Below are positions 1 to 59,346 of a stretch of DNA of 64,000 bases, in pieces (the stretch's first letter is position 1; each line of letters starts with the position of its first letter). The stretch spans positions 56,465 to 120,464 of the forward strand of contig CAYJOR010000002.1 in NCBI GenBank assembly GCA_964371865.1, given 5' to 3'. The notes beneath the pieces were generated by a model. That model searched no databases and was not told the origin of the DNA. It saw only the letters and a list, made by a program, of their open reading frames with translations. Made by a program: the position numbers and the translations under genes. Source of the DNA: an uncultured Desulfovibrionaceae bacterium. Lineage in GTDB: Bacteria; Desulfobacterota; Desulfovibrionia; Desulfovibrionales; Desulfovibrionaceae.

Positions 1-378
1 AAGTAAAAAAAATTAATTTAAATATACTATTGATAAAGAAAATAAAAACTATCATTCAACATATCAACAATAATTATTTTTTTATGAATTATGCTTGAAC
101 AAGTTGAAATTTATAATTTATAAATATAAATAAATATCTTATAATGGATTAAATAAATAAAATAGATTAAAAACTTGAATACATATTGTTCATATTGGCT
201 TATATTTCTTCAAGTAGTTTGATTTAGTAATATCATAAGATAGTTACAGTGTCAATTCAACTAATATAGTCTTAAAATTATTACTTTATTTTTTATCGAA
301 ATATATTTAAATTACACATCATTAATCAAATTCATTAAGTCAATTAAATAAAAAAAAACAATAATAAAGAGGTTTACA

Positions 379-14539: not shown

Positions 14540-14721
14540 TTTATTGCTCCTGATTAATAAATTGTGAATATTTTGTTGTAACCAATTGTGTTACACCTAA
14601 TGTGTATCTTAAGATTGTTGTAATGTCAATAGTTACAACGTTAGTTTCTTAGCTTTCAAATTAGACTAAAACATTGACAGAAGCGTATTATTTCATTATA
14701 GAATATCCTACGAGGTTCTAT

Positions 14722-15147
14722 ATGCAAATAACAAGTCGATTTACTTTTGCTATTCACACAATGCTATGTATAGCATATTTTTCTGAAAAACGCAAAGTTA
14801 CTTCAAATTTTATATCTTTAAGTACTAACGCAAATCCTGTTATCATCAGAAGAATTTTAGGGCAGTTAAAAAAAGCTGGACTTGTTACTGTCAGTGCCGG
14901 TGTTGGTGGAGCAAAGCTTGCAAAATCTATAGAAGACATTACTCTTTTTGATATTTTTTATGCTGTTGAAGCTGTTTCAAAAGACTTTTTCAACTTTCAT
15001 ACAAATCCAAATTGTCAATGCCCTGTTGGAAAAAATATACATACAATTTTAGATGGACACCTCAGTGAAATTCAACTCGCTATGAATGAACAAATGAAAA
15101 AAACAAATCTTAAAATGTTACTCAAAGAAACTGAAGAATTTTTATAA
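14722..15147 (+). CDS. Rrf2-family transcriptional regulator
   Basis: MQITSRFTFAIHTMLCIA... wHTH (IIRRILGQLKKAGLV). Cys pair NPNCQCP. Divergent from the nitroreductase gene. Start trimmed from 14674 to ATG 14722. Confidence 0.85.
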   Translation: MQITSRFTFAIHTMLCIAYFSEKRKVTSNFISLSTNANPVIIRRILGQLKKAGLVTVSAGVGGAKLAKSIEDITLFDIFYAVEAVSKDFFNFHTNPNCQCPVGKNIHTILDGHLSEIQLAMNEQMKKTNLKMLLKETEEFL

Positions 15148-15160
15148 AAATGGAAAAAAT

Positions 15161-15769
15161 ATGTACTTTGATACTCTTTCTGAATTACAAAAAAAATACT
15201 GGCATCAGCTTGAAAAATCAAAAAACATAGATTTAATCCTCTATGGCAGCACCGCTATTTCGTTGCAAGTTGGACATAGAAAAGCTGACGATTTCGATTT
15301 TTTTACAGATGAAGTTATCTCATCTGAGAAAATACATCAAAAACTTATTGAAGCAATCCCCTTTCTCAAATCTGCAAATCGAGTAGTTATTAAAGATGAT
15401 ATGCTCGTATATAAAACTAGTGATGGTCTCCAACTCTCTTTTTTTACAGGAATATCTACAGGACGAATTTCAAAGCCAGTACTAACCGACGACAAGATAA
15501 TAAATCTTGCCTCTCTCGATGACTTGCTAGCCTACAAACTACATAAATTCCCCCAACGTACCAGACTTACAGATTTTATTGATTTAGCCTCGATGTTAGA
15601 TTTTGGATTATCTTTAAAAAAAGGTTTAGATGATACCTCAAACTTATTTAAGGATAAATTTATTCAGCACGAGTGTATTCAAGTTTTACACAAACTTGAT
15701 ATCCAAGAACTAAGTCAACTATCTCAAAGTGAAAAAGATATAATAAGAAAAGCGTTACAAGAAATATAA
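15161..15769 (+). CDS. AbiEii/AbiGii-like nucleotidyltransferase-fold protein (putative toxin-type NTase)
   Basis: LYGSTAISLQVGHRKADDFDFF resembles the GGTAL..HR.S.D.D NTase motif. A later LAYKLHKFPQRTRLTDFIDL resembles the K..A...R...D..D motif. 13-nt gap after the Rrf2 gene. Confidence 0.5.
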   Translation: MYFDTLSELQKKYWHQLEKSKNIDLILYGSTAISLQVGHRKADDFDFFTDEVISSEKIHQKLIEAIPFLKSANRVVIKDDMLVYKTSDGLQLSFFTGISTGRISKPVLTDDKIINLASLDDLLAYKLHKFPQRTRLTDFIDLASMLDFGLSLKKGLDDTSNLFKDKFIQHECIQVLHKLDIQELSQLSQSEKDIIRKALQEI

Positions 15770-28304: not shown

Positions 28305-28330
28305 ACCTACTTTATGTAGGTTTTTTTTTG
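28305..28330 (+). terminator. Terminator after tRNA-Arg
   Basis: ACCTAC-TTTAT-GTAGGT followed by nine T. Confidence 0.5.
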
Positions 28331-28482: not shown

Positions 28483-28511
28483 TTGACATAGACTTTAATA
28501 AATTATATAAT
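28483..28511 (+). promoter_or_regulatory. Candidate sigma70 promoter of the T1SS operon
   Basis: TTGACA-17 nt-TATAAT (both hexamers perfect), 57 nt upstream of the tolC-like ATG. Confidence 0.55.
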
Positions 28512-28568: not shown

Positions 28569-30101
28569 ATGAACTTCAAAAAACACATTCTACCGCTTAT
28601 TGCCTATACTGCTGTTGCACCTGTTGTAACTTTTTCTGCAGTAGAAGCTAATGCAGCAGAGGACGTACCTGCAGTTATCGCTCAAAATGAGCCAACAGTT
28701 GTAGTTGGATCTGATGAGATAACTCACCCATTAGTAATAACACCACTTTTAGAAACAGAAGCACCAAAAGTTTCACCACTTATTGATGCAGTAGAAATTT
28801 CAGTTTACGATTCAATGAAGGCTGTGTTGTATTACTCGCCAACTCTTCGTTCAATCAGAGAAAACAGAGTTGCTCAACAATACGAAGTTGAAAAAGCTAA
28901 ATCTGGCTACTATCCATCTTTAGACGTAACCGGTACTTACGGTGTAGCATATACTGACAACCAATCTACAAGAGACTTTGCTGAACGCCAACCTGGTAGA
29001 TACAGTAACTTCAACGGATCAGCTACAGCTTCCGCATCTGCAACATTAACTCAAATTCTTTGGAACGGCAAAATCGTTTCAAATACTGTCGACTACAACA
29101 TATTTGTTTTAGAATCATTAGATAACCGTGTATACGATAACGCAACAACACTTGCTCTTGAAGGCTTGATTGCTCATACTGATATCGTAAGAACTAAAAA
29201 AATTCTCGACCTCACAGTTAGCTATGTTGATAAACACAGAGAAATTCTTAATCAACAAATCGCTTTAAGTGCATCTGGTATCATGACAGAAGCTGATGTA
29301 ACTCAAGCTCAAGGTCGTTTGGTTCGTGCTACTGCTGATTTAAGAAATGCTGAAAACGCATACAAAAATTCAGTTAATAACTACGAACAACTTACAGGTC
29401 ATGAACTTCCAGTATACTTCTTAGATCCATCTCTTCCACAACAAGAAGTTCAATCACCTGAATCAATCATTAGCACAGCTCTAATGAGAAACCCTAAAAT
29501 CAATGCTTTACACTCAGATTATCAAGCAGCTTTCAAACAAATTGACATTGCTGAAGGTGGTTATCACCCAGAAGTAACTCTTACATTTGGTGCTGAATAC
29601 GATGATCCTTCACTCGAAGCGAACACAGGTAATAAAGAATACACAACTAGCGCATCTGCAACAGTTGGTGTATCTTGGAACTTATTTAACGGTTTTGCAA
29701 CACAAAATACAGTTCTCGCTGCTAAAGCAAGATCACGTATGGCGCGTGAAGACACCATCGCTCAAATTGATGCTGTAAAAACTGAAGCTATCCAAACTTA
29801 CAACGATCTTAAAAATGCTCAAGAACTTCGTACAGTTTATGAAGATGCTAAAATGTACAACTTAGCAACTAGAGATAACTACCTATCTCAGTTCTCATTC
29901 GGTACACGTTCACTTCTTGACGTTTTAGATGCTGAAACTGAACTTTACACAACTCAAGTGCAGCTAGCTACTTCTGAGTCAAACATTATCGTAAACTCAT
30001 GGAGAGTTCTAGCTCTTCAAGGAACTTTACTTGATGACTTGGATATAGAACCAACTGTATACGAAACTCCATTACCACCAGCATCATTTGATTTTGACTA
30101 A
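28569..30101 (+). CDS. TolC-family type I secretion outer membrane protein (LapE-like)
   Basis: Signal peptide. Two-repeat OEP architecture. First gene of the T1SS operon. Confidence 0.9.
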   Translation: MNFKKHILPLIAYTAVAPVVTFSAVEANAAEDVPAVIAQNEPTVVVGSDEITHPLVITPLLETEAPKVSPLIDAVEISVYDSMKAVLYYSPTLRSIRENRVAQQYEVEKAKSGYYPSLDVTGTYGVAYTDNQSTRDFAERQPGRYSNFNGSATASASATLTQILWNGKIVSNTVDYNIFVLESLDNRVYDNATTLALEGLIAHTDIVRTKKILDLTVSYVDKHREILNQQIALSASGIMTEADVTQAQGRLVRATADLRNAENAYKNSVNNYEQLTGHELPVYFLDPSLPQQEVQSPESIISTALMRNPKINALHSDYQAAFKQIDIAEGGYHPEVTLTFGAEYDDPSLEANTGNKEYTTSASATVGVSWNLFNGFATQNTVLAAKARSRMAREDTIAQIDAVKTEAIQTYNDLKNAQELRTVYEDAKMYNLATRDNYLSQFSFGTRSLLDVLDAETELYTTQVQLATSESNIIVNSWRVLALQGTLLDDLDIEPTVYETPLPPASFDFD

Positions 30102-30121: not shown

Positions 30122-32509
30122 ATGCAAACTAGCAATATGAAGACTGAGTCAGAGAATAAGCAACAAGAGAAAAATGGCAATTCACAACAAAGCCAACCAA
30201 CTAACAATTCTCCTAGTAATTCTGTAGATATTGGTCTTGCACCTCGCGAAGTTGATTTTTTCCCACCGTTAGTACAAAGTTTCTCGACACTTTTCTCCCT
30301 ATACGGGAGACAAGTGTCGAGCAATGCAATAAATTTTGCGCTTGGCAATAGCGCACCATCTCCTGCTTCATGCCAAAGAGCAGCGAAACAGCTTGGTCTT
30401 AACTCGCGTATTGTACATAAACCTGAAATACGTGAAATTTTAGATACCGTATTGCCATCAATCCTTATTCTTCAAAATCAACAATCTTGTATCCTTGTTG
30501 AGAAGAAAGGCGACACTGCACAGATTATTATGCCTGAACACGGCAATACTGTGACAATAATTGATATTGATAAATTACAAGAAATTTACTCTGGATATGC
30601 AATTTTTGCTGCATTAGATCCAATGGCCGACAAACGCCTTCATAGTATTGTAAAAATACAAACCAAACGTTGGTTCTGGGACGTTGTTTGGCATTATATT
30701 CCATTATACCGTCAAGTTATTATCGCTACAATTGCGATTAACTTACTTGTTCTTGTTGGTCCATTATTCTTTATGAACGTTTATGATAGGGTTGTTCCGA
30801 ACCTTGCTTACGATACCCTATGGGTTTTAGCTGTAGGTGTGCTAGTAGGTTATATCTTTGAATTTATTCTTAAGGTCTTGCGTTCAAACTTTACTGACAG
30901 AGCAAATAAAAACATTAATACTATTGTTACAACAAGATTGATGCAAAAAATCATGGAAATGCGTCTTGAAGATAGACCAGATTCATCAGGTGCACTCATC
31001 AACCACATGAAAGAATTTGAATCGTTGCAAGATTTCTTTAGTGCCGTAAGCTTACTTACAGTTATTGACTTGCCATTTATGATTCTTTTCCTATTTGTTG
31101 TATTCTTCATTGGTGGAAATGTTGTATACCTTCCAATCATAGCAATTATTATCCTGATATGTTCTATTCTAATACTTCAAATAACAATCAAAAAATTTAG
31201 TTTACTCAACCATCAATCAAACGTTGAAAAAAATGCTCACCTTGTTGAAATGATTACAGGTATGGAAGCTATTAAAATGGCAGTAGCTGAAAACCGTATG
31301 TTACAAATATGGGAAAAAGTTATAGCTTATTCAGCTGAAGTTGGTACAAATTCTAAAAGAACAACTACTCTTGCAGTTAACTTTGCAACTTTCGTAAGTC
31401 ATATTGTTTCAGTAACTCTTATTGTTTGGGGTGTTTATCTAATCGGTTCCCACAGTCTTACAATGGGTGGACTTATAGCATGTAACATTCTTATTGGTAG
31501 AGCAATGTCATTTGTTATGCAGTTAGCATCTCTCATGACTCGCTATCAACAAGCAAAAGTTTCATTGCAAGTTCTTAACCACTTGATGGAACTGCCTTCT
31601 GAACGTCACACAAGTTCACATCTTGTTGAATTTGGTGACTTACCTCACTCACTAGAACTCACAAAAGTATCCTTTGCATATAAAGGTGCGCACTTACCTA
31701 CAATTGATGACGTAAGTCTTACAATTAATCCGGGCGAGAAAGTTGGTATTATCGGAAACATGGGTTCTGGTAAATCAACAATGGCGAGACTTTTATGTGG
31801 TCTTTATACACCAACAGCAGGTGCTGTAAAATTTGGTGGTGTTGACTTACGTAGATTAGATATGTCAGAGCTTAGAACTCGTGTAAGCTTCCTTCCACAA
31901 GATCCATTACTCTTCCACGGAACCATTCGTGAAAACATTGCTCTTGGTTCGATTCATATTCCAGATCAGCTTGTAGTTAGAGCAGCTTGGATTGCTGGTG
32001 TGCATGAATTTGTTCAACACACTCCTGAAGGATATGCAATGCAAGTGGGTGAAAAAGGACAAAACCTCTCAGGCGGACAAAGACAAGCAGTTGCTCTAGC
32101 ACGTGCTCTTCTACATGACCCAGATGTAATTATCCTTGATGAACCAACAAGTAATATTGATGGAGCAACTGAAGCTAGAATCAAGTCAAGATTGAAGAAA
32201 ATCATTCAAAATAAAACTTTAATCATTAATATGCACAGAATGAGCTTGCTTGAACTCACAACAAGACTTATAGTATTACAAGACGGTAAGGTTGTTGCTG
32301 ATGGTCCTACTAAAGAAGTTTATGCGTGGCTAAATAGTAAACAACAAGCTCCAACAAGTAATCAACAGTCACCACAAGTAAAAAACACACTTGTAAATAA
32401 CTCACCGGGAAACACAGATCCTAGAAGAGTTATACCTAAAGAGGCTGAAGCAGAGAACGCTCAGGAAGAAGTAAAACCTGATGACTTTGTTAGAACTACA
32501 ACTGATTAA
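30122..32509 (+). CDS. Type I secretion ABC exporter (LapB/HlyB-like, N-terminal C39-like domain without catalytic Cys)
   Basis: Walker A GNMGSGKST, signature LSGGQRQAVALARA, Walker B IILDEPTS. Six-TM domain. Gln/Ser/Asn-rich N- and C-terminal tails. Confidence 0.92.
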   Translation: MQTSNMKTESENKQQEKNGNSQQSQPTNNSPSNSVDIGLAPREVDFFPPLVQSFSTLFSLYGRQVSSNAINFALGNSAPSPASCQRAAKQLGLNSRIVHKPEIREILDTVLPSILILQNQQSCILVEKKGDTAQIIMPEHGNTVTIIDIDKLQEIYSGYAIFAALDPMADKRLHSIVKIQTKRWFWDVVWHYIPLYRQVIIATIAINLLVLVGPLFFMNVYDRVVPNLAYDTLWVLAVGVLVGYIFEFILKVLRSNFTDRANKNINTIVTTRLMQKIMEMRLEDRPDSSGALINHMKEFESLQDFFSAVSLLTVIDLPFMILFLFVVFFIGGNVVYLPIIAIIILICSILILQITIKKFSLLNHQSNVEKNAHLVEMITGMEAIKMAVAENRMLQIWEKVIAYSAEVGTNSKRTTTLAVNFATFVSHIVSVTLIVWGVYLIGSHSLTMGGLIACNILIGRAMSFVMQLASLMTRYQQAKVSLQVLNHLMELPSERHTSSHLVEFGDLPHSLELTKVSFAYKGAHLPTIDDVSLTINPGEKVGIIGNMGSGKSTMARLLCGLYTPTAGAVKFGGVDLRRLDMSELRTRVSFLPQDPLLFHGTIRENIALGSIHIPDQLVVRAAWIAGVHEFVQHTPEGYAMQVGEKGQNLSGGQRQAVALARALLHDPDVIILDEPTSNIDGATEARIKSRLKKIIQNKTLIINMHRMSLLELTTRLIVLQDGKVVADGPTKEVYAWLNSKQQAPTSNQQSPQVKNTLVNNSPGNTDPRRVIPKEAEAENAQEEVKPDDFVRTTTD

Positions 32510-32596: not shown

Positions 32597-34285
32597 ATGA
32601 ATAAAGAACAAAACACTAATATAGCAAAAAATCCTAAAGCAGGGAAAGACTACTCTCCTAAATCCGGTACTGATTACTCACCAAAAGCAGGAAAGGATTA
32701 TTCGCCTAAACCTGAAGTACAACCAGAACCTGCTAAAGAAGTTGTGCCTCAAACAGAAGCACCGAAAGTTCCTTTAGCTAAAATAGATCCAGTAAAAATG
32801 GCTGTGCCAGCTGATGCTGTTACTCAAAATGCTAATGGAGAAATTGAACTTTCTCCTGACTATATTGAAAAGAAAGACCAAAAACGCCCTGTTAATAGTG
32901 ATAAACTTCAACAGCAGAGCGGATCTGAAGCAGAAGAACTATTTACTGCTAAAAGAAAGAAGCCTACAAATGAAGAAAAAGAATATATGTCTGACATTGA
33001 CGCTGTTTGGAACGATACAGGTTCAACTCGTCAACGTGCAGTAACATTCCTTATTCTTGCACTACTCCTTAGTTTTATAGCTTGGGCTTCTTGGGCTACG
33101 ATTGATGAGCTTACAAGAGGACAAGGGCAAGTTATCGCATCTTCAGGAACTCAGGTTATCACTCACTTAGAGGGTGGTATTCTATCTGATATTCTTGTTA
33201 CAGAAGGTGTTATTGTTGAAGAAGGTCAAATACTTGCAAGAGTTGAAAACGTTGCGGCTGAAAGTGTGTACCGTGATACTCAAACAAAAATTTACGAACT
33301 CACTGCAACTATCATTCGTTTGGAAGCAGAGCTTAATGATACACAGCTACAGTACTCTCCTGAATTAATTTCTGCTGCTCCTAATATTGTTGAATTACAA
33401 ACTCAAGTATACAATACACGTAGACGTCAATTCTTATCAGAAATAGATGTTCTTGATACTCAAAGTCAGCAAGCTCACTACGAACTTGATGATATGGAAA
33501 AGAAACACCGCACTACAACTGAAGCTCTTTCTTTAGCATCGCGTCGTCTCGATCTCTCAAGACCAATGGTTGCTCAAGGTCTTTATGCTGAAGTTGACTT
33601 CTTAAACTTACAACAAGAAATTGTTAACCTGCGTGGCGAGCTAGATTCTCTTGAAAATAATATCTCAAAAGCAGAGATTGTTGTGCAAGAATCAGAACTT
33701 AAGAAAAATTTATTCAAATCTGAATATAACTCAAGAATTATTGAAGAAATCAATAAAATTACATCAGAACGTAACTCTTTAGAAAAGAACTTAACTACAG
33801 GTTCTGATAGAGTTGTGAGAACCGAAATCCGCTCTCCAATGCGTGGAGTTGTGAACCAAATTGTTCTCAACACAAAAGGTGGTGCCGTTAAGCCTGGTGA
33901 ACCAATCATGGAAGTTGTTCCTTTAGATGATACTTTGCTTATCGAAGCTAAAATTAGCCCTGCTGATATCGGTTTTATTTATCCAAATCAAAAAGCCGTT
34001 GTAAAGCTAACAGCTTATGATTTCTCTATCTTTGGTGGATTAGAGGCGAAAGTTGAGCAAATTAGTGCGGATACAATTCAAGGGCAAGGACAACAAGCTA
34101 ACGAATACTTTTATCTCGTAAAACTGCGTACAACTGAAAACAGCCTAGAGTATAGAGGTGAAACTCTACCTATTATCCCTGGTATGATTGCAAGTGTTGA
34201 TATTATTACTGGTAAAAAGACAATCATGCAGTATCTTCTCAAACCAATCTTAAAAGCTAAAGACAATGCTTTACGTGAAAGATAG
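32597..34285 (+). CDS. HlyD-family type I secretion periplasmic adaptor (LapC-like) with a long N-terminal extension
   Basis: TM helix at about aa 145-165 (AVTFLILALLLSFIAWASWA). Coiled-coil and lipoyl/beta-barrel segments. C-terminal GKKTIMQYLLKPI. Confidence 0.9.
   Translation: MNKEQNTNIAKNPKAGKDYSPKSGTDYSPKAGKDYSPKPEVQPEPAKEVVPQTEAPKVPLAKIDPVKMAVPADAVTQNANGEIELSPDYIEKKDQKRPVNSDKLQQQSGSEAEELFTAKRKKPTNEEKEYMSDIDAVWNDTGSTRQRAVTFLILALLLSFIAWASWATIDELTRGQGQVIASSGTQVITHLEGGILSDILVTEGVIVEEGQILARVENVAAESVYRDTQTKIYELTATIIRLEAELNDTQLQYSPELISAAPNIVELQTQVYNTRRRQFLSEIDVLDTQSQQAHYELDDMEKKHRTTTEALSLASRRLDLSRPMVAQGLYAEVDFLNLQQEIVNLRGELDSLENNISKAEIVVQESELKKNLFKSEYNSRIIEEINKITSERNSLEKNLTTGSDRVVRTEIRSPMRGVVNQIVLNTKGGAVKPGEPIMEVVPLDDTLLIEAKISPADIGFIYPNQKAVVKLTAYDFSIFGGLEAKVEQISADTIQGQGQQANEYFYLVKLRTTENSLEYRGETLPIIPGMIASVDIITGKKTIMQYLLKPILKAKDNALRER
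32636..32707 (+). repeat. 3 x 24-bp in-frame tandem repeat (K[AS]G[KT]DYSP) in the HlyD N-terminus
   Basis: The units 32636-32659, 32660-32683 and 32684-32707 encode KAGKDYSP / KSGTDYSP / KAGKDYSP with differing synonymous codons. Confidence 0.9.
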
Positions 34286-34985: not shown

Positions 34986-37073
34986 ATGGAGTCAACAATG
35001 AAAAGTCCTGAACAGAACCAAAAATCTTCTGTTGCTAAAAAAAGGCAAGCTCTTGCTATTGTTGTTTGTTTGCTAATTGCAATATGTGGTGTTGCTTATT
35101 ATGTTTCAAATCTTAATTATGAAAAGAAAAAAGCTGATATTCTAAATGCTGAAAATATCAACCTTACAAGCTGGGTGCAAGGCACAATTCAAGCTATATC
35201 TATATGGGTAGAAAGTATTGATGAACAAGGTCAGCGTATCAGTAATTCTGATTCATACCGAGGCTTTATTGAAGATGTTAGGTTAGCTGGCGAAGATGTT
35301 GCCTCAGAAATCAACACTTCTGACATTGTTACTTCGCAACTTGATACAAATTATGATGAACTAATAGATCAAGTACCTTTCTGGCGTAGTGCTCTATATG
35401 ATTACATGAATAATATCGGCATGTTTGATGCACGTATAGTTAATGCTGATGCTGTAACTATACTCTCAGCACTTCAAATACCAACAGCTATTACACCGAA
35501 TCAAGTTCTTACTGTAAAAAAATCTATAGACAATAACAAAATTGCTATATCTCCAGTGCGCACATCAGCATCAACAATGGTTATCGACTATGCACTTCCA
35601 ATCCTTCCATTTGTTTATAATGAAAATGATCCACCAATAGCCGCGGTTCTTTTTACACTTCCTATAACAAATCAGATTGCGCAATTCTTATCACGTGATA
35701 TTCACGCTGAAACACAAACTATTCCGTATATTATTCAAAAAAATGGTGATTTGTATCAAAATATTCAAGTTCATACCCCAAAACCATCTGATATAACAAC
35801 TCAACTTGACTTTAACTCTTCCCAAATTTTACCATTTGGAATAAGAACATCAGTCGATGGAACAACTCAAGTTTATTCTTATGCAGAAAAAGTTCCTGGA
35901 CTTGATATGTGGGTTGTTCTTGAATTGCCTGCTGATGTCATTATCAATACCTTTACTTCTATGGCTTGGACTATTTATGGTCTTGGAGCTCTTGCAAGCA
36001 TTGGTGTTATCTTGTTGTTTGCTATGATTTGGTGGATGATGATTGGTAAAGAACAAAGAGAAGCTGCAGAAAAATTTAGAAAGCTTTATGATGTTATTGC
36101 ACAGCAAAAAGGATTACTAGATAGTATCAACCTTTCTCTAGAAGTTGGTCTTATAATGATCGATACTGATGGTAAAATCCAAATTTCTAACAAAACCTTT
36201 AATGAAATTGTAGGAAAAGATGAAGATGGTATGGTAGATGCTAGCTTACTTTCAGTATTTGAAGGTCAAGTTGCTGGTATCTTCATGGAGAAGGTTGATA
36301 AAGTTGTTGAAAATGATACTTATCTAACTTTTGAAGTTGAAATTCCGAAGCAAGACATTATTTCCCTTTACCGTGTAACACTCTATCCTTTCCATGATGA
36401 CTATGACGATGGTGTTGATATTCTAGGTGCAGTTGCTACCCTTCAAGATATTACAGAATTTAGACGTAATAGCGAAAAGAATAAGAAACAACAAGCTAAT
36501 ATTATTCAAGCATTTGTTCGCGCAATTGAGGGTGTGGATCCATATCTCACCGGTCACTCACAAATGATGAGTAACGTTGGTGTACTTATGGCAAAACATA
36601 TGAATATGACTGAAGAAGACATTTCTACTATTCATAATGCTTCTATCTTCTCGCAAATTGGTAAACTCTTCATCGATAGAGAAATACTTATCAAAACAGG
36701 CAAACTTACACCAGAAGAACTTACAAAAATCAAACACCTTCCTGAAAAAGCATATGAAGTTCTTTCCGGCATTGGTTTTAGTGCTCCTATTGCTACTGCG
36801 GTGCGTCAAATGTATGAACAACTTGATGGTAATGGATATCCAAATAAACTAAAAGATGAAGAAATAATTATTCCTGCACGAATTCTTGCTATAACAAACT
36901 CATTCTGTGCTCTTATTAGTGAGAGATCGTTTAGAGCTGGATTGCCAATCAATGAAGCAATTGGAAAACTTAAAGAATGTCCTAACCAGTTTGATCTTGA
37001 ACTTCTTAATGTTCTTACTGAAGTAATAAAAACTCCTGAAGGTGCTACTGCACTTACCGTTAATAAAGATTAA
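34986..37073 (+). CDS. Transmembrane sensor protein: periplasmic domain - TM - PAS-like - degenerate HD-GYP domain (putative LapD-analogous regulator)
   Basis: TM1 at about aa 22-42, a ~280-aa periplasmic region, TM2 (WTIYGLGALASIGVILLFAMIWWMMIG), a PAS-like block, and a C-terminal HD-GYP fold with DGNGYP. The HD is replaced by SQ (IFSQIGK), HHE by MYE, and D..DA by N..CA. Confidence 0.8.
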   Translation: MESTMKSPEQNQKSSVAKKRQALAIVVCLLIAICGVAYYVSNLNYEKKKADILNAENINLTSWVQGTIQAISIWVESIDEQGQRISNSDSYRGFIEDVRLAGEDVASEINTSDIVTSQLDTNYDELIDQVPFWRSALYDYMNNIGMFDARIVNADAVTILSALQIPTAITPNQVLTVKKSIDNNKIAISPVRTSASTMVIDYALPILPFVYNENDPPIAAVLFTLPITNQIAQFLSRDIHAETQTIPYIIQKNGDLYQNIQVHTPKPSDITTQLDFNSSQILPFGIRTSVDGTTQVYSYAEKVPGLDMWVVLELPADVIINTFTSMAWTIYGLGALASIGVILLFAMIWWMMIGKEQREAAEKFRKLYDVIAQQKGLLDSINLSLEVGLIMIDTDGKIQISNKTFNEIVGKDEDGMVDASLLSVFEGQVAGIFMEKVDKVVENDTYLTFEVEIPKQDIISLYRVTLYPFHDDYDDGVDILGAVATLQDITEFRRNSEKNKKQQANIIQAFVRAIEGVDPYLTGHSQMMSNVGVLMAKHMNMTEEDISTIHNASIFSQIGKLFIDREILIKTGKLTPEELTKIKHLPEKAYEVLSGIGFSAPIATAVRQMYEQLDGNGYPNKLKDEEIIIPARILAITNSFCALISERSFRAGLPINEAIGKLKECPNQFDLELLNVLTEVIKTPEGATALTVNKD

Positions 37074-37143: not shown

Positions 37144-38346
37144 ATGAAAATTCTTTTTATTTCAAAATATTGTCCTTCTCATTTTCAAAATATTCTTTTG
37201 TACTTTTCTGTTAACCCTCAAAATCATATACACTTTTTTTCTGAATACAGGCATCAAGAACTAGCATTGAAAAATGTTACTTATACAAATATTAGATTCC
37301 CGCGTGTTCAGTATAAAGGAAGTAAATCGGAACAGACATCTATTAGGCTACTACGACGTTCTTTAGCGTTTTCAAACGCCTTAGATCGACTAAAAAATAC
37401 TGGGTTCACACCTGATATTATAGTTGCTGATACAAACCACGCTTGCTCTTTAAACTTGCCTGAAATTTTCCCTAATGTTCCAACAATTGGATTTTGTGAA
37501 TGGTTTTTCCAAAGTGATCTTTCGCCTAATCTTGATAAATCTGAAGAAGATTATTCACCAGAGTTTTTACCATTTAAAATTAATAATATGTTTCAACTTG
37601 AAACTTTAAGAACTTGTACAAAACTCTTCACTTTTTCTCAATGCCAAAAAAAATCTTTTCCAGAATTTATACAAAAGAAAATATCTGTAATTCCTCAAGG
37701 CATTAATACAGACTTCTTTGCACCAAAACTAGAAAAGAATAAAATACCATCTTTTTTAAATGGGTATGAAGACAGCGAAATAGTCTTACTTTCTTATAGA
37801 AATACAAAAAGCGAACAGACTCTTTCTGTTGCTCTAAACGCTTTGAAAGAAATTTTTAGAAGTAGAAAACAAACGAAATTACTTCTTTTATCAAGAGCAA
37901 ATGTAAATCCAGAAGAATTGCAAAAAGTATTACACCAAGCACAGCAAGTACTTGGAGAATTTAGCAATCGCATAATTGTTCACACAGGAGCAACCATAGA
38001 AGAGTATAAATTCGCCCTTCTAAGAGCTAGAGTACTACTCTATCCATTCAATATGCTTTTTGTGAATACATCGCTTTTTGAGGCATTCAGCTGTGCAACA
38101 ACTGTGATAGCACAACAGTCTCCAGCTCTAGAAGAGTTTATTACACATGGAGAAAATGCCTATTTTCATGCTTATGATAGACCGGATACATTAGCGCAAT
38201 TAGTAGAAGAAGTTCTAAATGATCCGAATTTATCGAAAAATCTCAGAACACAAGCACGAAAACAAGCAGTTACATCATTGTCAATAAAAACCGAGCTAAG
38301 AAAAATCGTTAAAACTATTGAACCTTTTATCCAACAAGAGAATTAA
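37144..38346 (+). CDS. GT-B fold glycosyltransferase (group 1 / GT4-like)
   Basis: C-terminal E-x7-E-like region SLFEAFSCATTVIAQQSPALEEFITHGENAYF. 400 aa. Confidence 0.6.
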   Translation: MKILFISKYCPSHFQNILLYFSVNPQNHIHFFSEYRHQELALKNVTYTNIRFPRVQYKGSKSEQTSIRLLRRSLAFSNALDRLKNTGFTPDIIVADTNHACSLNLPEIFPNVPTIGFCEWFFQSDLSPNLDKSEEDYSPEFLPFKINNMFQLETLRTCTKLFTFSQCQKKSFPEFIQKKISVIPQGINTDFFAPKLEKNKIPSFLNGYEDSEIVLLSYRNTKSEQTLSVALNALKEIFRSRKQTKLLLLSRANVNPEELQKVLHQAQQVLGEFSNRIIVHTGATIEEYKFALLRARVLLYPFNMLFVNTSLFEAFSCATTVIAQQSPALEEFITHGENAYFHAYDRPDTLAQLVEEVLNDPNLSKNLRTQARKQAVTSLSIKTELRKIVKTIEPFIQQEN

Positions 38347-58308: not shown

Positions 58309-59346
58309 ATGATTCCCTCAAAACCACTTTTTATTAGAGATAGTGTGTCTTTACCTGATTATGAGAGTCTTATAAGAAAACAAAGGCAAACTCTCGATAA
58401 TCAAAATTCTGACACTTTCGCTCAAATGTTAAGCTCTTCATCACAAGAAAATGAGAGCCACTCTCAAGCTACATCTTTAGTTGAAACAAAAAAAACAACA
58501 CCAGAAGTTGAAAACTCAGTAACTGAAAAACCTATAGGCATTCCCCTTCATAGTAGTGGAATTGAAATTCTAACAAAACGCCCAATAGGAATCACCCCAA
58601 CGGCTATGATGCTCGATAGTCAATCACTACAAATTCTTACTCGATTGACTGAAAGAAAATCTTCAGGATTAAGGCTTACCACTCAAGAAGATTTCATAGA
58701 ATCAGCAAAGCTTTCACAAAAAACTACTACGGCAGCGGACTACTATGTCTCTAACAATCCACTTGGTAAGTTGTCGGCTAAGTATGAATCTGGTACACAG
58801 GGCATTTCTGCTATTGGCTATGACAGAGTAGGTGGAACTTCTTACGGTAAATATCAAATTGCGTCAAAAGTAGGCACATTCAATGACTTTATTAATTTCT
58901 TAGAAACTGAAGCCCCTGATATAGCAGAACAGCTTACTAATGCTGGTACTGCCAATACTGGTTCTCGATCAGGTGCTGTTCCTGAAGCATGGAAAGAAGT
59001 TGCTGCAAGTGACCCTAAAAGATTTGGTGAACTTCAAGAAGAATTTATAAAGAAAACTCACTACAATCCTGCTTATAACAGTATAAAAGATACTGGAATT
59101 GATACTGATTCTGAAATTATTAAGCAAGTAGTGTGGTCAACTGCTGTTCAGCATGGTGCTACCGGCGCAAAAAGGATTTTTGACCAAGCTCTTAAAAATA
59201 TTGACACCTTAGATGAAAAATCTTTCATCACAGAAGTTTACGAGTTAAGAGCAAATCAATTCTCTTCTTCAAGCTCAAGTGTACGTAGTTCTGTTCAAAA
59301 CAGGCTTATTGCTGAAAAAAATGATGCTCTTAAAGAATTAGCTTAG
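58309..59346 (+). CDS. Hypothetical 345-aa protein with a C-terminal lysozyme-like-looking domain
   Basis: GAGGAGG SD. Ser/Thr/Gln-rich N-terminal half. The C-terminal block LSAKYESGTQGISAIGYDRVGGTSYGKYQIASKVGTFNDF resembles the Glu...Asp-x-x-GG-x-SYG core of lysozyme-superfamily domains. The coding call is solid; the function call is weak. Confidence 0.5.
   Translation: MIPSKPLFIRDSVSLPDYESLIRKQRQTLDNQNSDTFAQMLSSSSQENESHSQATSLVETKKTTPEVENSVTEKPIGIPLHSSGIEILTKRPIGITPTAMMLDSQSLQILTRLTERKSSGLRLTTQEDFIESAKLSQKTTTAADYYVSNNPLGKLSAKYESGTQGISAIGYDRVGGTSYGKYQIASKVGTFNDFINFLETEAPDIAEQLTNAGTANTGSRSGAVPEAWKEVAASDPKRFGELQEEFIKKTHYNPAYNSIKDTGIDTDSEIIKQVVWSTAVQHGATGAKRIFDQALKNIDTLDEKSFITEVYELRANQFSSSSSSVRSSVQNRLIAEKNDALKELA

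Follow-up and report, generated by a model that had tools for sequence, protein, structure and literature searches.

A degenerate HD-GYP protein as a candidate DvhD-family c-di-GMP receptor in a type I secretion gene cluster of an uncultured Desulfovibrionaceae bacterium

The candidate receptor gene and its homology to DvhD

The window analysed here is a stretch of 64,000 nucleotides from an uncultured Desulfovibrionaceae bacterium (contig CAYJOR010000002.1 of assembly GCA_964371865.1, positions 56,465 to 120,464 of the forward strand). It harbours a type I secretion gene cluster in which a TolC-like outer-membrane factor, an ABC transporter and a HlyD-type membrane fusion protein (MFP) are followed by a cysteine protease of the BTLCP family, by an open reading frame (ORF) with a degenerate HD-GYP domain, and by a GT4-family glycosyltransferase (Table 1). 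We propose that the product of this ORF, referred to below as the receptor, belongs to the DvhD family of inner-membrane receptors for cyclic di-GMP (c-di-GMP), and that it probably restrains the co-encoded protease.

The receptor ORF was intact, and 21 close homologues recovered by a word-indexed homologue search, D. vulgaris DvhD not being among them, aligned with it end to end. The protein consists of a transmembrane segment, a periplasmic domain of ~280 amino acids, a second transmembrane segment, a PAS domain and the HD-GYP domain. The original prediction, which was made from the DNA letters and the ORF translations, had called the HD-GYP domain a candidate c-di-GMP receptor rather than a phosphodiesterase. 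All of the motif strings that it quoted were present in the translation (TGHSQMM at 522-528, IFSQIGK at 554-560, KTGKLTPEEL..KH at 570-584, RQMYEQLDGNGYP at 607-619 and RILAITNSFCA at 632-642). Its account of the surroundings of that domain was also sound: two transmembrane segments bracket the periplasmic domain, the PAS-like block that it placed between the second of these and the HD-GYP domain was matched by Pfam, and the neighbouring LapG-like protease is encoded by the BTLCP gene, which ends 6 bp upstream.

Table 1. Features of the type I secretion cluster and of the receptor, in window coordinates
Feature	Coordinates	Strand	Evidence and remarks
Promoter-like site, TTGACA-17-TATAAT	28483..28511	+	12/12, sigma-70 consensus match only; ~58 bp upstream of first operon gene
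TolC-like outer-membrane factor, type I secretion	28569..30101	+	Pfam OEP, E 1.3e-47; syntenic in related loci
Type I secretion ABC transporter	30122..32509	+	Pfam ABC_tran, 4.9e-34; ABC_membrane, 1.7e-18
HlyD-type MFP	32597..34285	+	Pfam HlyD_3, 1.3e-15
DvhG/LapG-like BTLCP cysteine protease, 237 aa	34266..34979	+	PF06035, E 2.4e-17
Putative DvhD-family inner-membrane receptor, 695 aa	34986..37073	+	Intact ORF
Receptor transmembrane segments, residues ~22-44 and ~326-354			Hydrophobic segments flanking the ~280-aa domain
Periplasmic dCache-type domain, residues ~45-325	35118..35960	+	phmmer and Foldseek matches to 9rc2
Cytoplasmic PAS domain, residues 385-494	36138..36467	+	Pfam PAS_4, E 2e-8; aligned within 9rc0
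Degenerate HD-GYP domain, residues 510-672	36513..37001	+	Pfam HD_5, E 2e-34
GT4-family glycosyltransferase, last cluster gene	37144..38346	+	PF12000, 3e-23; PF00534, 2.4e-11

The best matches of the receptor in the PDB were three entries for DvhD (DVU1020, also named BfsD) of Desulfovibrio (Nitratidesulfovibrio) vulgaris Hildenborough, released in March 2026: 9rc0, the PAS/HD-GYP portion (E 9e-47), 9rbz, the HD-GYP domain with c-di-GMP (E 1.4e-38), and 9rc2, the periplasmic domain (phmmer E 4e-24 over receptor residues 65-320). The same structures gave the top Foldseek matches of an AlphaFold2 model of the receptor (target TM-scores of 0.84 for 9rc2, 0.69 for 9rc0 and 0.83-0.85 for 9rbz; mean pLDDT 80.5, input alignment of 22 sequences), with catalytic HD-GYP enzymes and the dCache sensor domains of Mlp24 and Mlp37 ranking below them. 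In this model the helix spanning residues 8-86 breaks and is succeeded by a second helix at 89-101, where the conserved stretch YRGFIEDV lies. Homology to DvhD extends along the whole of the receptor, through all three domains, and the two proteins share the order transmembrane segment, dCache, transmembrane segment, PAS, stalk and HD-GYP. Both come from the same bacterial family, the Desulfovibrionaceae, and both are encoded directly after a BTLCP protease gene, with type I secretion genes (TolC, ABC and MFP) lying upstream.

A good deal is known of DvhD from experiment. Karbelkar et al. (PNAS 2024; PMC10990149) reported sub-micromolar binding of c-di-GMP by DvhD and, in a reconstituted P. 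fluorescens system, regulation by DvhD of the LapG-like protease DvhG; the cytoplasmic fragment binds c-di-GMP with a dissociation constant (Kd) of ~0.1-0.3 µM. In the DvhD structures of Font et al. (Nat Commun 2026; PMC13090378) the HD pair is replaced by SQ and the double histidine by MN, there was no metal density, and c-di-GMP was not hydrolysed in vitro with any added ion. Binding of c-di-GMP splays the stalk helices, and the periplasmic domain has a dCache fold (PMC13090378). The published AlphaFold 3 model suggests that DvhD contacts DvhG through the dCache helix alpha1', and the system has been reported across the Desulfovibrionales, with signal peptides on most DvhG orthologues (PMC13090378). 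The receptor idea is therefore the published model for DvhD/DvhG (PMC10990149; PMC13090378) and the locus is not new in kind; what it adds, modestly, is a further lineage with the DvhDG system, one of low GC content and uncultured, within the Desulfovibrionaceae.

Metal ligands and nucleotide contacts in the HD-GYP domain

The metal ligands of the active enzyme PmGH have been determined experimentally as E185, H189, H221, D222, H250, H276, H277 and D305 (PMC4159591), and the register of these positions in the receptor was taken from HMMER alignments to PmGH (4mcw) and V-cGAP3 (5z7c), both active enzymes, and also to DvhD (9rbz). Compared with PmGH and V-cGAP3, HDIGK has become SQIGK, HHE..DGxGYP has become MYE..DGNGYP and D.FDA has become N.FCA in the HMMER alignments. 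E185 is replaced by Y520, H221 by S556, D222 by Q557, H250 by L585, H276 by M609, H277 by Y610 and D305 by N638. With these seven of the eight lost, H524, the equivalent of H189, is the sole surviving ligand. D518 (PmGH D183), K560 (K225), E611 and the GYP loop are kept. The original prediction had stated that all metal-ligand motifs are substituted and that GYP is retained. The alignments confirm the retention of GYP and the replacement of HD by SQ, of HHE by MYE and of D..DA by N..CA, although 'all' was a slight overstatement, because one histidine ligand survives. The prediction had also counted the KH string as retained, and here it erred: H584 is one residue out of register, the H250 position aligns with L585 and this ligand is lost. 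The possibility that the ligands are present but shifted was considered and rejected, as the register against PmGH, V-cGAP3 and DvhD was the same in HMMER and MAFFT alignments and H584 is the only histidine close by.

The complete metal-ligand set of catalytic HD-GYP phosphodiesterases is thus lacking in the receptor, and these alignments support the view that its HD-GYP domain is catalytically dead, without a competent metal site. A phosphodiesterase that remains active through a non-canonical or reduced metal site is a highly improbable alternative. The fold is retained, as are H524, K560, D518, E611 and the GYP motif, and some HD-GYP enzymes tolerate the loss of one ligand, since PmGH variants E185A and D305A have residual activity (PMC4159591). 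However, alanine at any other metal ligand abolished PmGH activity, single substitutions of H221, D222, H250, H276 and H277 among them (PMC4159591), and six of the seven ligands common to active HD-GYP enzymes are non-ligands or poor ligands in the receptor (S, Q, L, M, Y and N). Moreover, DvhD has the same degeneracy and shows neither metal density nor hydrolysis (PMC13090378), and no aligned member of the family keeps HD or HH. The receptor shares with the catalytic HD-GYP proteins PmGH (4mcw), V-cGAP3 (5z7c) and PA4781 (4r8z) the fold, the GYP loop and the arginine and aromatic residues of the substrate site; it differs from them in that the metal centre has gone, and it is predicted to bind but not to hydrolyse. 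HnoD (Shewanella) and ECA3548 (Pectobacterium) are likewise altered in their HD and HHE motifs, do not hydrolyse and have a regulatory role; unlike the receptor, these are a REC-HD-GYP protein and an HD-GYP protein with PilZ, are not membrane receptors, and have no link to a BTLCP protease or to type I secretion.

The closest likeness is again to DvhD. Both proteins have SQ in place of HD, methionine in place of the first histidine of HH, asparagine at D305 and cysteine at D308, while the H250-equivalent histidine is kept in DvhD and is L585 in the receptor, and the second histidine of HH is asparagine in DvhD and tyrosine in the receptor. The residues that clamp the nucleotide are also common to both (tyrosine, leucine, the tyrosine of GYP, arginine and an aromatic-arginine pair). 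At the canonical c-di-GMP site of DvhD, five residues are identical in the receptor (DvhD Y523, L577, Y621, R650 and R653, which correspond to Y520, L574, Y618, R647 and R650), two are conservatively replaced (M646 by L643 and Y652 by F649) and two are changed, as discussed below. In DvhD, R650A and Y652A/R653A weaken the c-di-GMP response.

The pattern extends through the family. Among ~95 receptor genes at 80 related loci (one genome per species), the HD pair is SQ or CQ, the first histidine of HH is methionine (isoleucine in one) and the D305 position is asparagine in all but two. When 1.84 billion cluster representatives were searched exhaustively, 333 clusters scored E <= 1e-30, and the top 147 of these were aligned (50% clustering). 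HD or HH was kept in none of these 147 representatives, whereas R647 was present in all 147, R650 in 146 and L574 in 140; the GYP motif and Y520 were also conserved. Selection therefore acts on the binding residues and not on the catalytic ones; throughout the family it has retained the nucleotide clamp and let the catalytic centre go.

One group of family members departs from this pattern. In the DvhD of the D. desulfuricans type (loci L037-L054 and other Desulfovibrio-labelled loci of the group, e.g. L042:9992-12118) the tyrosine of GYP is replaced, giving G[Q/L/E/N/T]P, and the position of DvhD Y523 is asparagine; these proteins thus lack two of the residues with which D. vulgaris DvhD contacts c-di-GMP. 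Species of this type are named as carriers of the system in PMC13090378.

A proposed DvhD-type switch and the evidence for and against it

The BTLCP protease encoded beside the receptor matched LapG in the PDB (4fgo, E 5e-21; 4u65_E, 9e-20), with GDCEDYAIAKYF, AHxVL and LD aligned, and scored 95.9 bits against the NCBIfam LapG model, under the equivalog cut-off of 320. Its C-H-D triad and the Ca-binding acidic residues flanking the cysteine are intact (D151-C152-E153, H187 and D202). DvhG has a transmembrane helix and a linker of ~180 residues, whereas the protease of the window has a signal-peptide-like N-terminus, with one hydrophobic segment at ~30-50 and no long linker.

We propose that the ORF at 34986..37073 encodes a DvhD-family inner-membrane c-di-GMP receptor that restrains this protease, and give this reading a probability of about 0.78. 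It draws on the architecture, on the motifs SQ, M.E and N..CA shared with DvhD, on the retention of most canonical-site residues, on the intact protease triad and on the gene context; above all, it is supported by homology to a protein, DvhD, that has been characterised experimentally. The same evidence favours the central claim of the original prediction, that a degenerate HD-GYP domain serves here as a receptor for c-di-GMP. From DvhD and DvhG of D. vulgaris we infer that the receptor binds c-di-GMP and does not hydrolyse it, that it controls the protease, and that the substrate of the latter is an adhesin. The nucleotide would escape hydrolysis because the HD-GYP domain cannot bind catalytic metals, and would instead be clamped by the dimeric receptor at the dead active site, through the residues that have been kept. 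A movement of the stalk helices would then cross the membrane and reach the dCache domain as an inside-out signal. When c-di-GMP is high, this domain would restrain the periplasmic DvhG/LapG-type protease; when it is low, the protease would be free to cleave the N-terminal retention module, at a di-alanine site, from a giant adhesin exported by type I secretion, the cleaved adhesin would leave the TolC-like channel and the cell would detach.

The original prediction had likened this logic to that of LapD, in which degenerate turnover domains act as a c-di-GMP sensor, and homology to DvhD/DvhG bears the likeness out as an analogy. LapD of P. fluorescens is likewise an inner-membrane receptor with degenerate domains of c-di-GMP turnover and cytoplasmic sensing, and the periplasmic BTLCP protease under its control releases an adhesin exported by type I secretion; the protease of the window is homologous to LapG. 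The receptors themselves are not homologous: LapD senses the nucleotide with an EAL domain and the DvhD type with an HD-GYP domain, and DvhD-type receptors are without the tryptophan that docks into LapG. Membership of the LapD family was considered and rejected, since the receptor had no LapD/MoxY, HAMP, GGDEF or EAL match in Pfam at E <= 1 and its periplasmic fold is that of dCache. This fold is unrelated to that of LapD, and the resemblance is therefore one of analogy and not of family.

A number of observations weigh against the proposal. Identity to DvhD is modest, at 38% over the HD-GYP domain and ~24-28% over the dCache and PAS/HD-GYP regions. Of the canonical-site residues, K582, a phosphate contact in DvhD, is L579 in the receptor, and the guanine-specifying E668 is C665, with E664 adjacent. 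The bridging c-di-GMP site of DvhD, formed by K520, P567 and R569, is absent, these residues being V517, D564 and E566, and P567T, at the position that is D564 here, weakens the c-di-GMP response of DvhD. Even in D. vulgaris, sequestration of DvhG and occlusion of the path of its substrate are both candidates for how DvhD restrains it. Furthermore, no LapA-like adhesin that combines a retention module with a [TAP]AAG site came to light in the 64-kb window; inspection of stop-to-stop segments (300 aa or longer), a scan for [TAP]AAG and Pfam on nearly all ORFs of at least 150 aa turned up housekeeping genes only. Up to 10 kb of flanking sequence at the 80 related loci held no convincing adhesin candidate either. 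Lap systems are known in which the adhesin is encoded apart from its regulators. The lack of an adhesin gene adjoining the operon is a difference from DvhD, as is the GT4 gene that follows the receptor gene at this locus.

One explanation for the changes at the nucleotide site is that the low-GC clade to which the window belongs carries a simplified DvhD variant that switches by the canonical nucleotide site alone. We regard this as unlikely. Its basis is that the clade is without the bridging proline, the flanking lysine and arginine, the guanine-specifying glutamate and the last vestigial histidine; and as P567T impairs the response of DvhD to c-di-GMP, the clade may switch differently. In such a variant the nucleotide could be bound 1:1 and not 3:2, with altered cooperativity or relaxed nucleotide specificity. 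Across the family, P567 is kept in 123 of the 147 representatives, with aspartate in the window clade, and K520 and R569 are not conserved; the bridging site, on this distribution, may be lineage-specific rather than family-defining.

Another possibility is that the mechanism is that of DvhD and the physiological nucleotide a different one, such as 3'3'-cGAMP or linear pGpG. DvhD does bind 3'3'-cGAMP (Kd ~0.5 µM, as against ~0.1 µM for c-di-GMP), and the loss of the lysine contact to phosphate would fit. E668 of DvhD hydrogen-bonds to the guanine amino group, which was proposed as the basis of its specificity (PMC13090378), and the residue at this position varies across the family (D/N/E/H/T and others). 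On the other side, the remaining residues that clamp the two bases and the two phosphodiesters are kept, E664 could assume the guanine contact from beside C665, and no cGAMP synthase was evident in the window. c-di-GMP is also the preferred ligand of DvhD and, among such systems, the sole one to have been identified to date in D. vulgaris. We consider a different nucleotide improbable, and prefer c-di-GMP as the ligand of the receptor.

Distribution, paralogues and neighbouring genes

The related loci were labelled Desulfovibrionaceae or unclassified bacteria in 79 of 80 cases; they include many uncultured metagenome-assembled genomes (MAGs) along with Mailhella, Bilophila, Lawsonia, D. desulfuricans and D. 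falkowii. The closest relative is 92% identical, and the GC content of the window clade is 32-39%, like that of the window itself. We found no paper on the habitat of the source MAGs (ERP123703). The remaining locus is in a MAG labelled Thermoguttaceae (Planctomycetota; L013, JBOFSQ010000054.1), where ABC, MFP, BTLCP and DvhD genes lie in this order and the DvhD product is 42% identical to the receptor of the window; this occurrence may reflect mis-binning or horizontal transfer. BTLCP-adjacent members of 954-1093 aa were also seen (L073:8513-11791, L075:8513-11791 and L078:9989-12850), which suggests that extra domains have been inserted in these receptors.

A second, DvhD-like paralogue lies between the MFP and GT4 genes in a number of loci (L016-L035, L058, L070, L072, L076, L077, L079 and L080; e.g. 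L018:5935-8013). It occurs either in an operon of the order TolC-ABC-MFP-paralogue-GT4-BTLCP-DvhD or with no BTLCP gene within 10 kb. The paralogue is also degenerate (SQ, M.E and N..CA), and its equivalent of K225 is methionine. When compared with the periplasmic domain of DvhD, BTLCP-adjacent receptors scored 65-188 bits in most loci and 29-56 in a few, and paralogues without an adjoining BTLCP gene scored 16-56 bits, which places DvhD nearer to the BTLCP-adjacent receptors. A neighbour-joining tree of HD-GYP domains was not relied on (212 columns, no support values); it groups D. vulgaris DvhD with Bilophila receptors and protease-less paralogues and not with the window clade. As a receptor, the paralogue may have another periplasmic partner. 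The word 'paralog' is absent from the main text of the 2026 DvhD paper (PMC13090378).

The existence of this subgroup bears on a further explanation, in which the HD-GYP domain is a structural dimerisation module only and sensing from the outside in, or through the PAS domain, sets the activity of the protease, of secretion or of the glycosyltransferase independently of any nucleotide. Sensing of ligands is a classical function of dCache and PAS domains, the paralogues that adjoin MFP and GT4 genes without a BTLCP gene indicate that the family is not tied to the protease alone, and the receptor has lost the bridging nucleotide site. However, the clamp arginines are the most conserved residues of the family, which would be hard to explain without ligand binding, and DvhD responds to c-di-GMP both in cells and in vitro. 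A purely structural role for the domain is improbable when set beside its use as a c-di-GMP receptor, about as improbable as a change of nucleotide.

The order TolC-ABC-MFP-BTLCP-receptor-GT4 recurs in the window clade, in Bilophila and in related loci of the Desulfovibrionaceae, and in most of the related loci linked to type I secretion a GT4 gene directly follows the receptor gene, whichever paralogue this is. Because GT4 genes follow the receptor in many loci and MFP-paralogue-GT4 arrangements occur without the protease, wider control by these receptors, for example of adhesin glycosylation or of secretion, is conceivable, though unlikely. Glycosylation of an adhesin is one possible role of the GT4 protein, which had no sequence relative in the PDB and NCBIfam matches only far under their cut-offs. 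Glycosyltransferases appear in the neighbourhood supplement of the 2026 DvhD paper and not in its main text (PMC13090378).

Beyond the published work, the leads offered by this locus are the observations on bridging-site variation, the paralogue and the GT4 gene only. Degeneracy of the metal site and near-invariance of the clamp arginines could be followed here across the family, in the 147 representatives aligned out of 333 clusters. Natural variation at the bridging site, at the E668 position and in the length of the protease could help to tell which features of DvhD are needed for switching.

The genes of the cluster are closely spaced, with 20 bp between the TolC-like and ABC genes, 87 bp between ABC and MFP, a 20-bp overlap of MFP and BTLCP, 6 bp between BTLCP and the receptor gene and 70 bp between the latter and GT4. 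The sole long intergenic gap of the cluster is one of 436 bp upstream of the TolC-like gene, in which the promoter-like site lies, and a hairpin lies at 28305-28321, 3' of lpxC. The N-terminus of the ABC transporter has a weak match to Peptidase_C39 (2.9e-4), under the curated cut-off. At the N-terminus of the MFP (residues ~13-37) there are three tandem copies of an eight-residue motif, (A/S)G(K/T)DYSPK, within a long cytoplasmic extension rich in proline, glutamate and lysine.

Elsewhere in the window, a 345-aa protein encoded at 58309-59346 has a VgrG3-like C-terminal domain (PF21277, 2.3e-37) and weak similarity to GH46; this module is of the peptidoglycan/chitosan-hydrolase type and is known from effectors of type VI secretion systems. 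At 14674-15769, a gene for a regulator of the Rrf2 family is followed by one for an AbiEii-like nucleotidyltransferase, a type IV toxin family.

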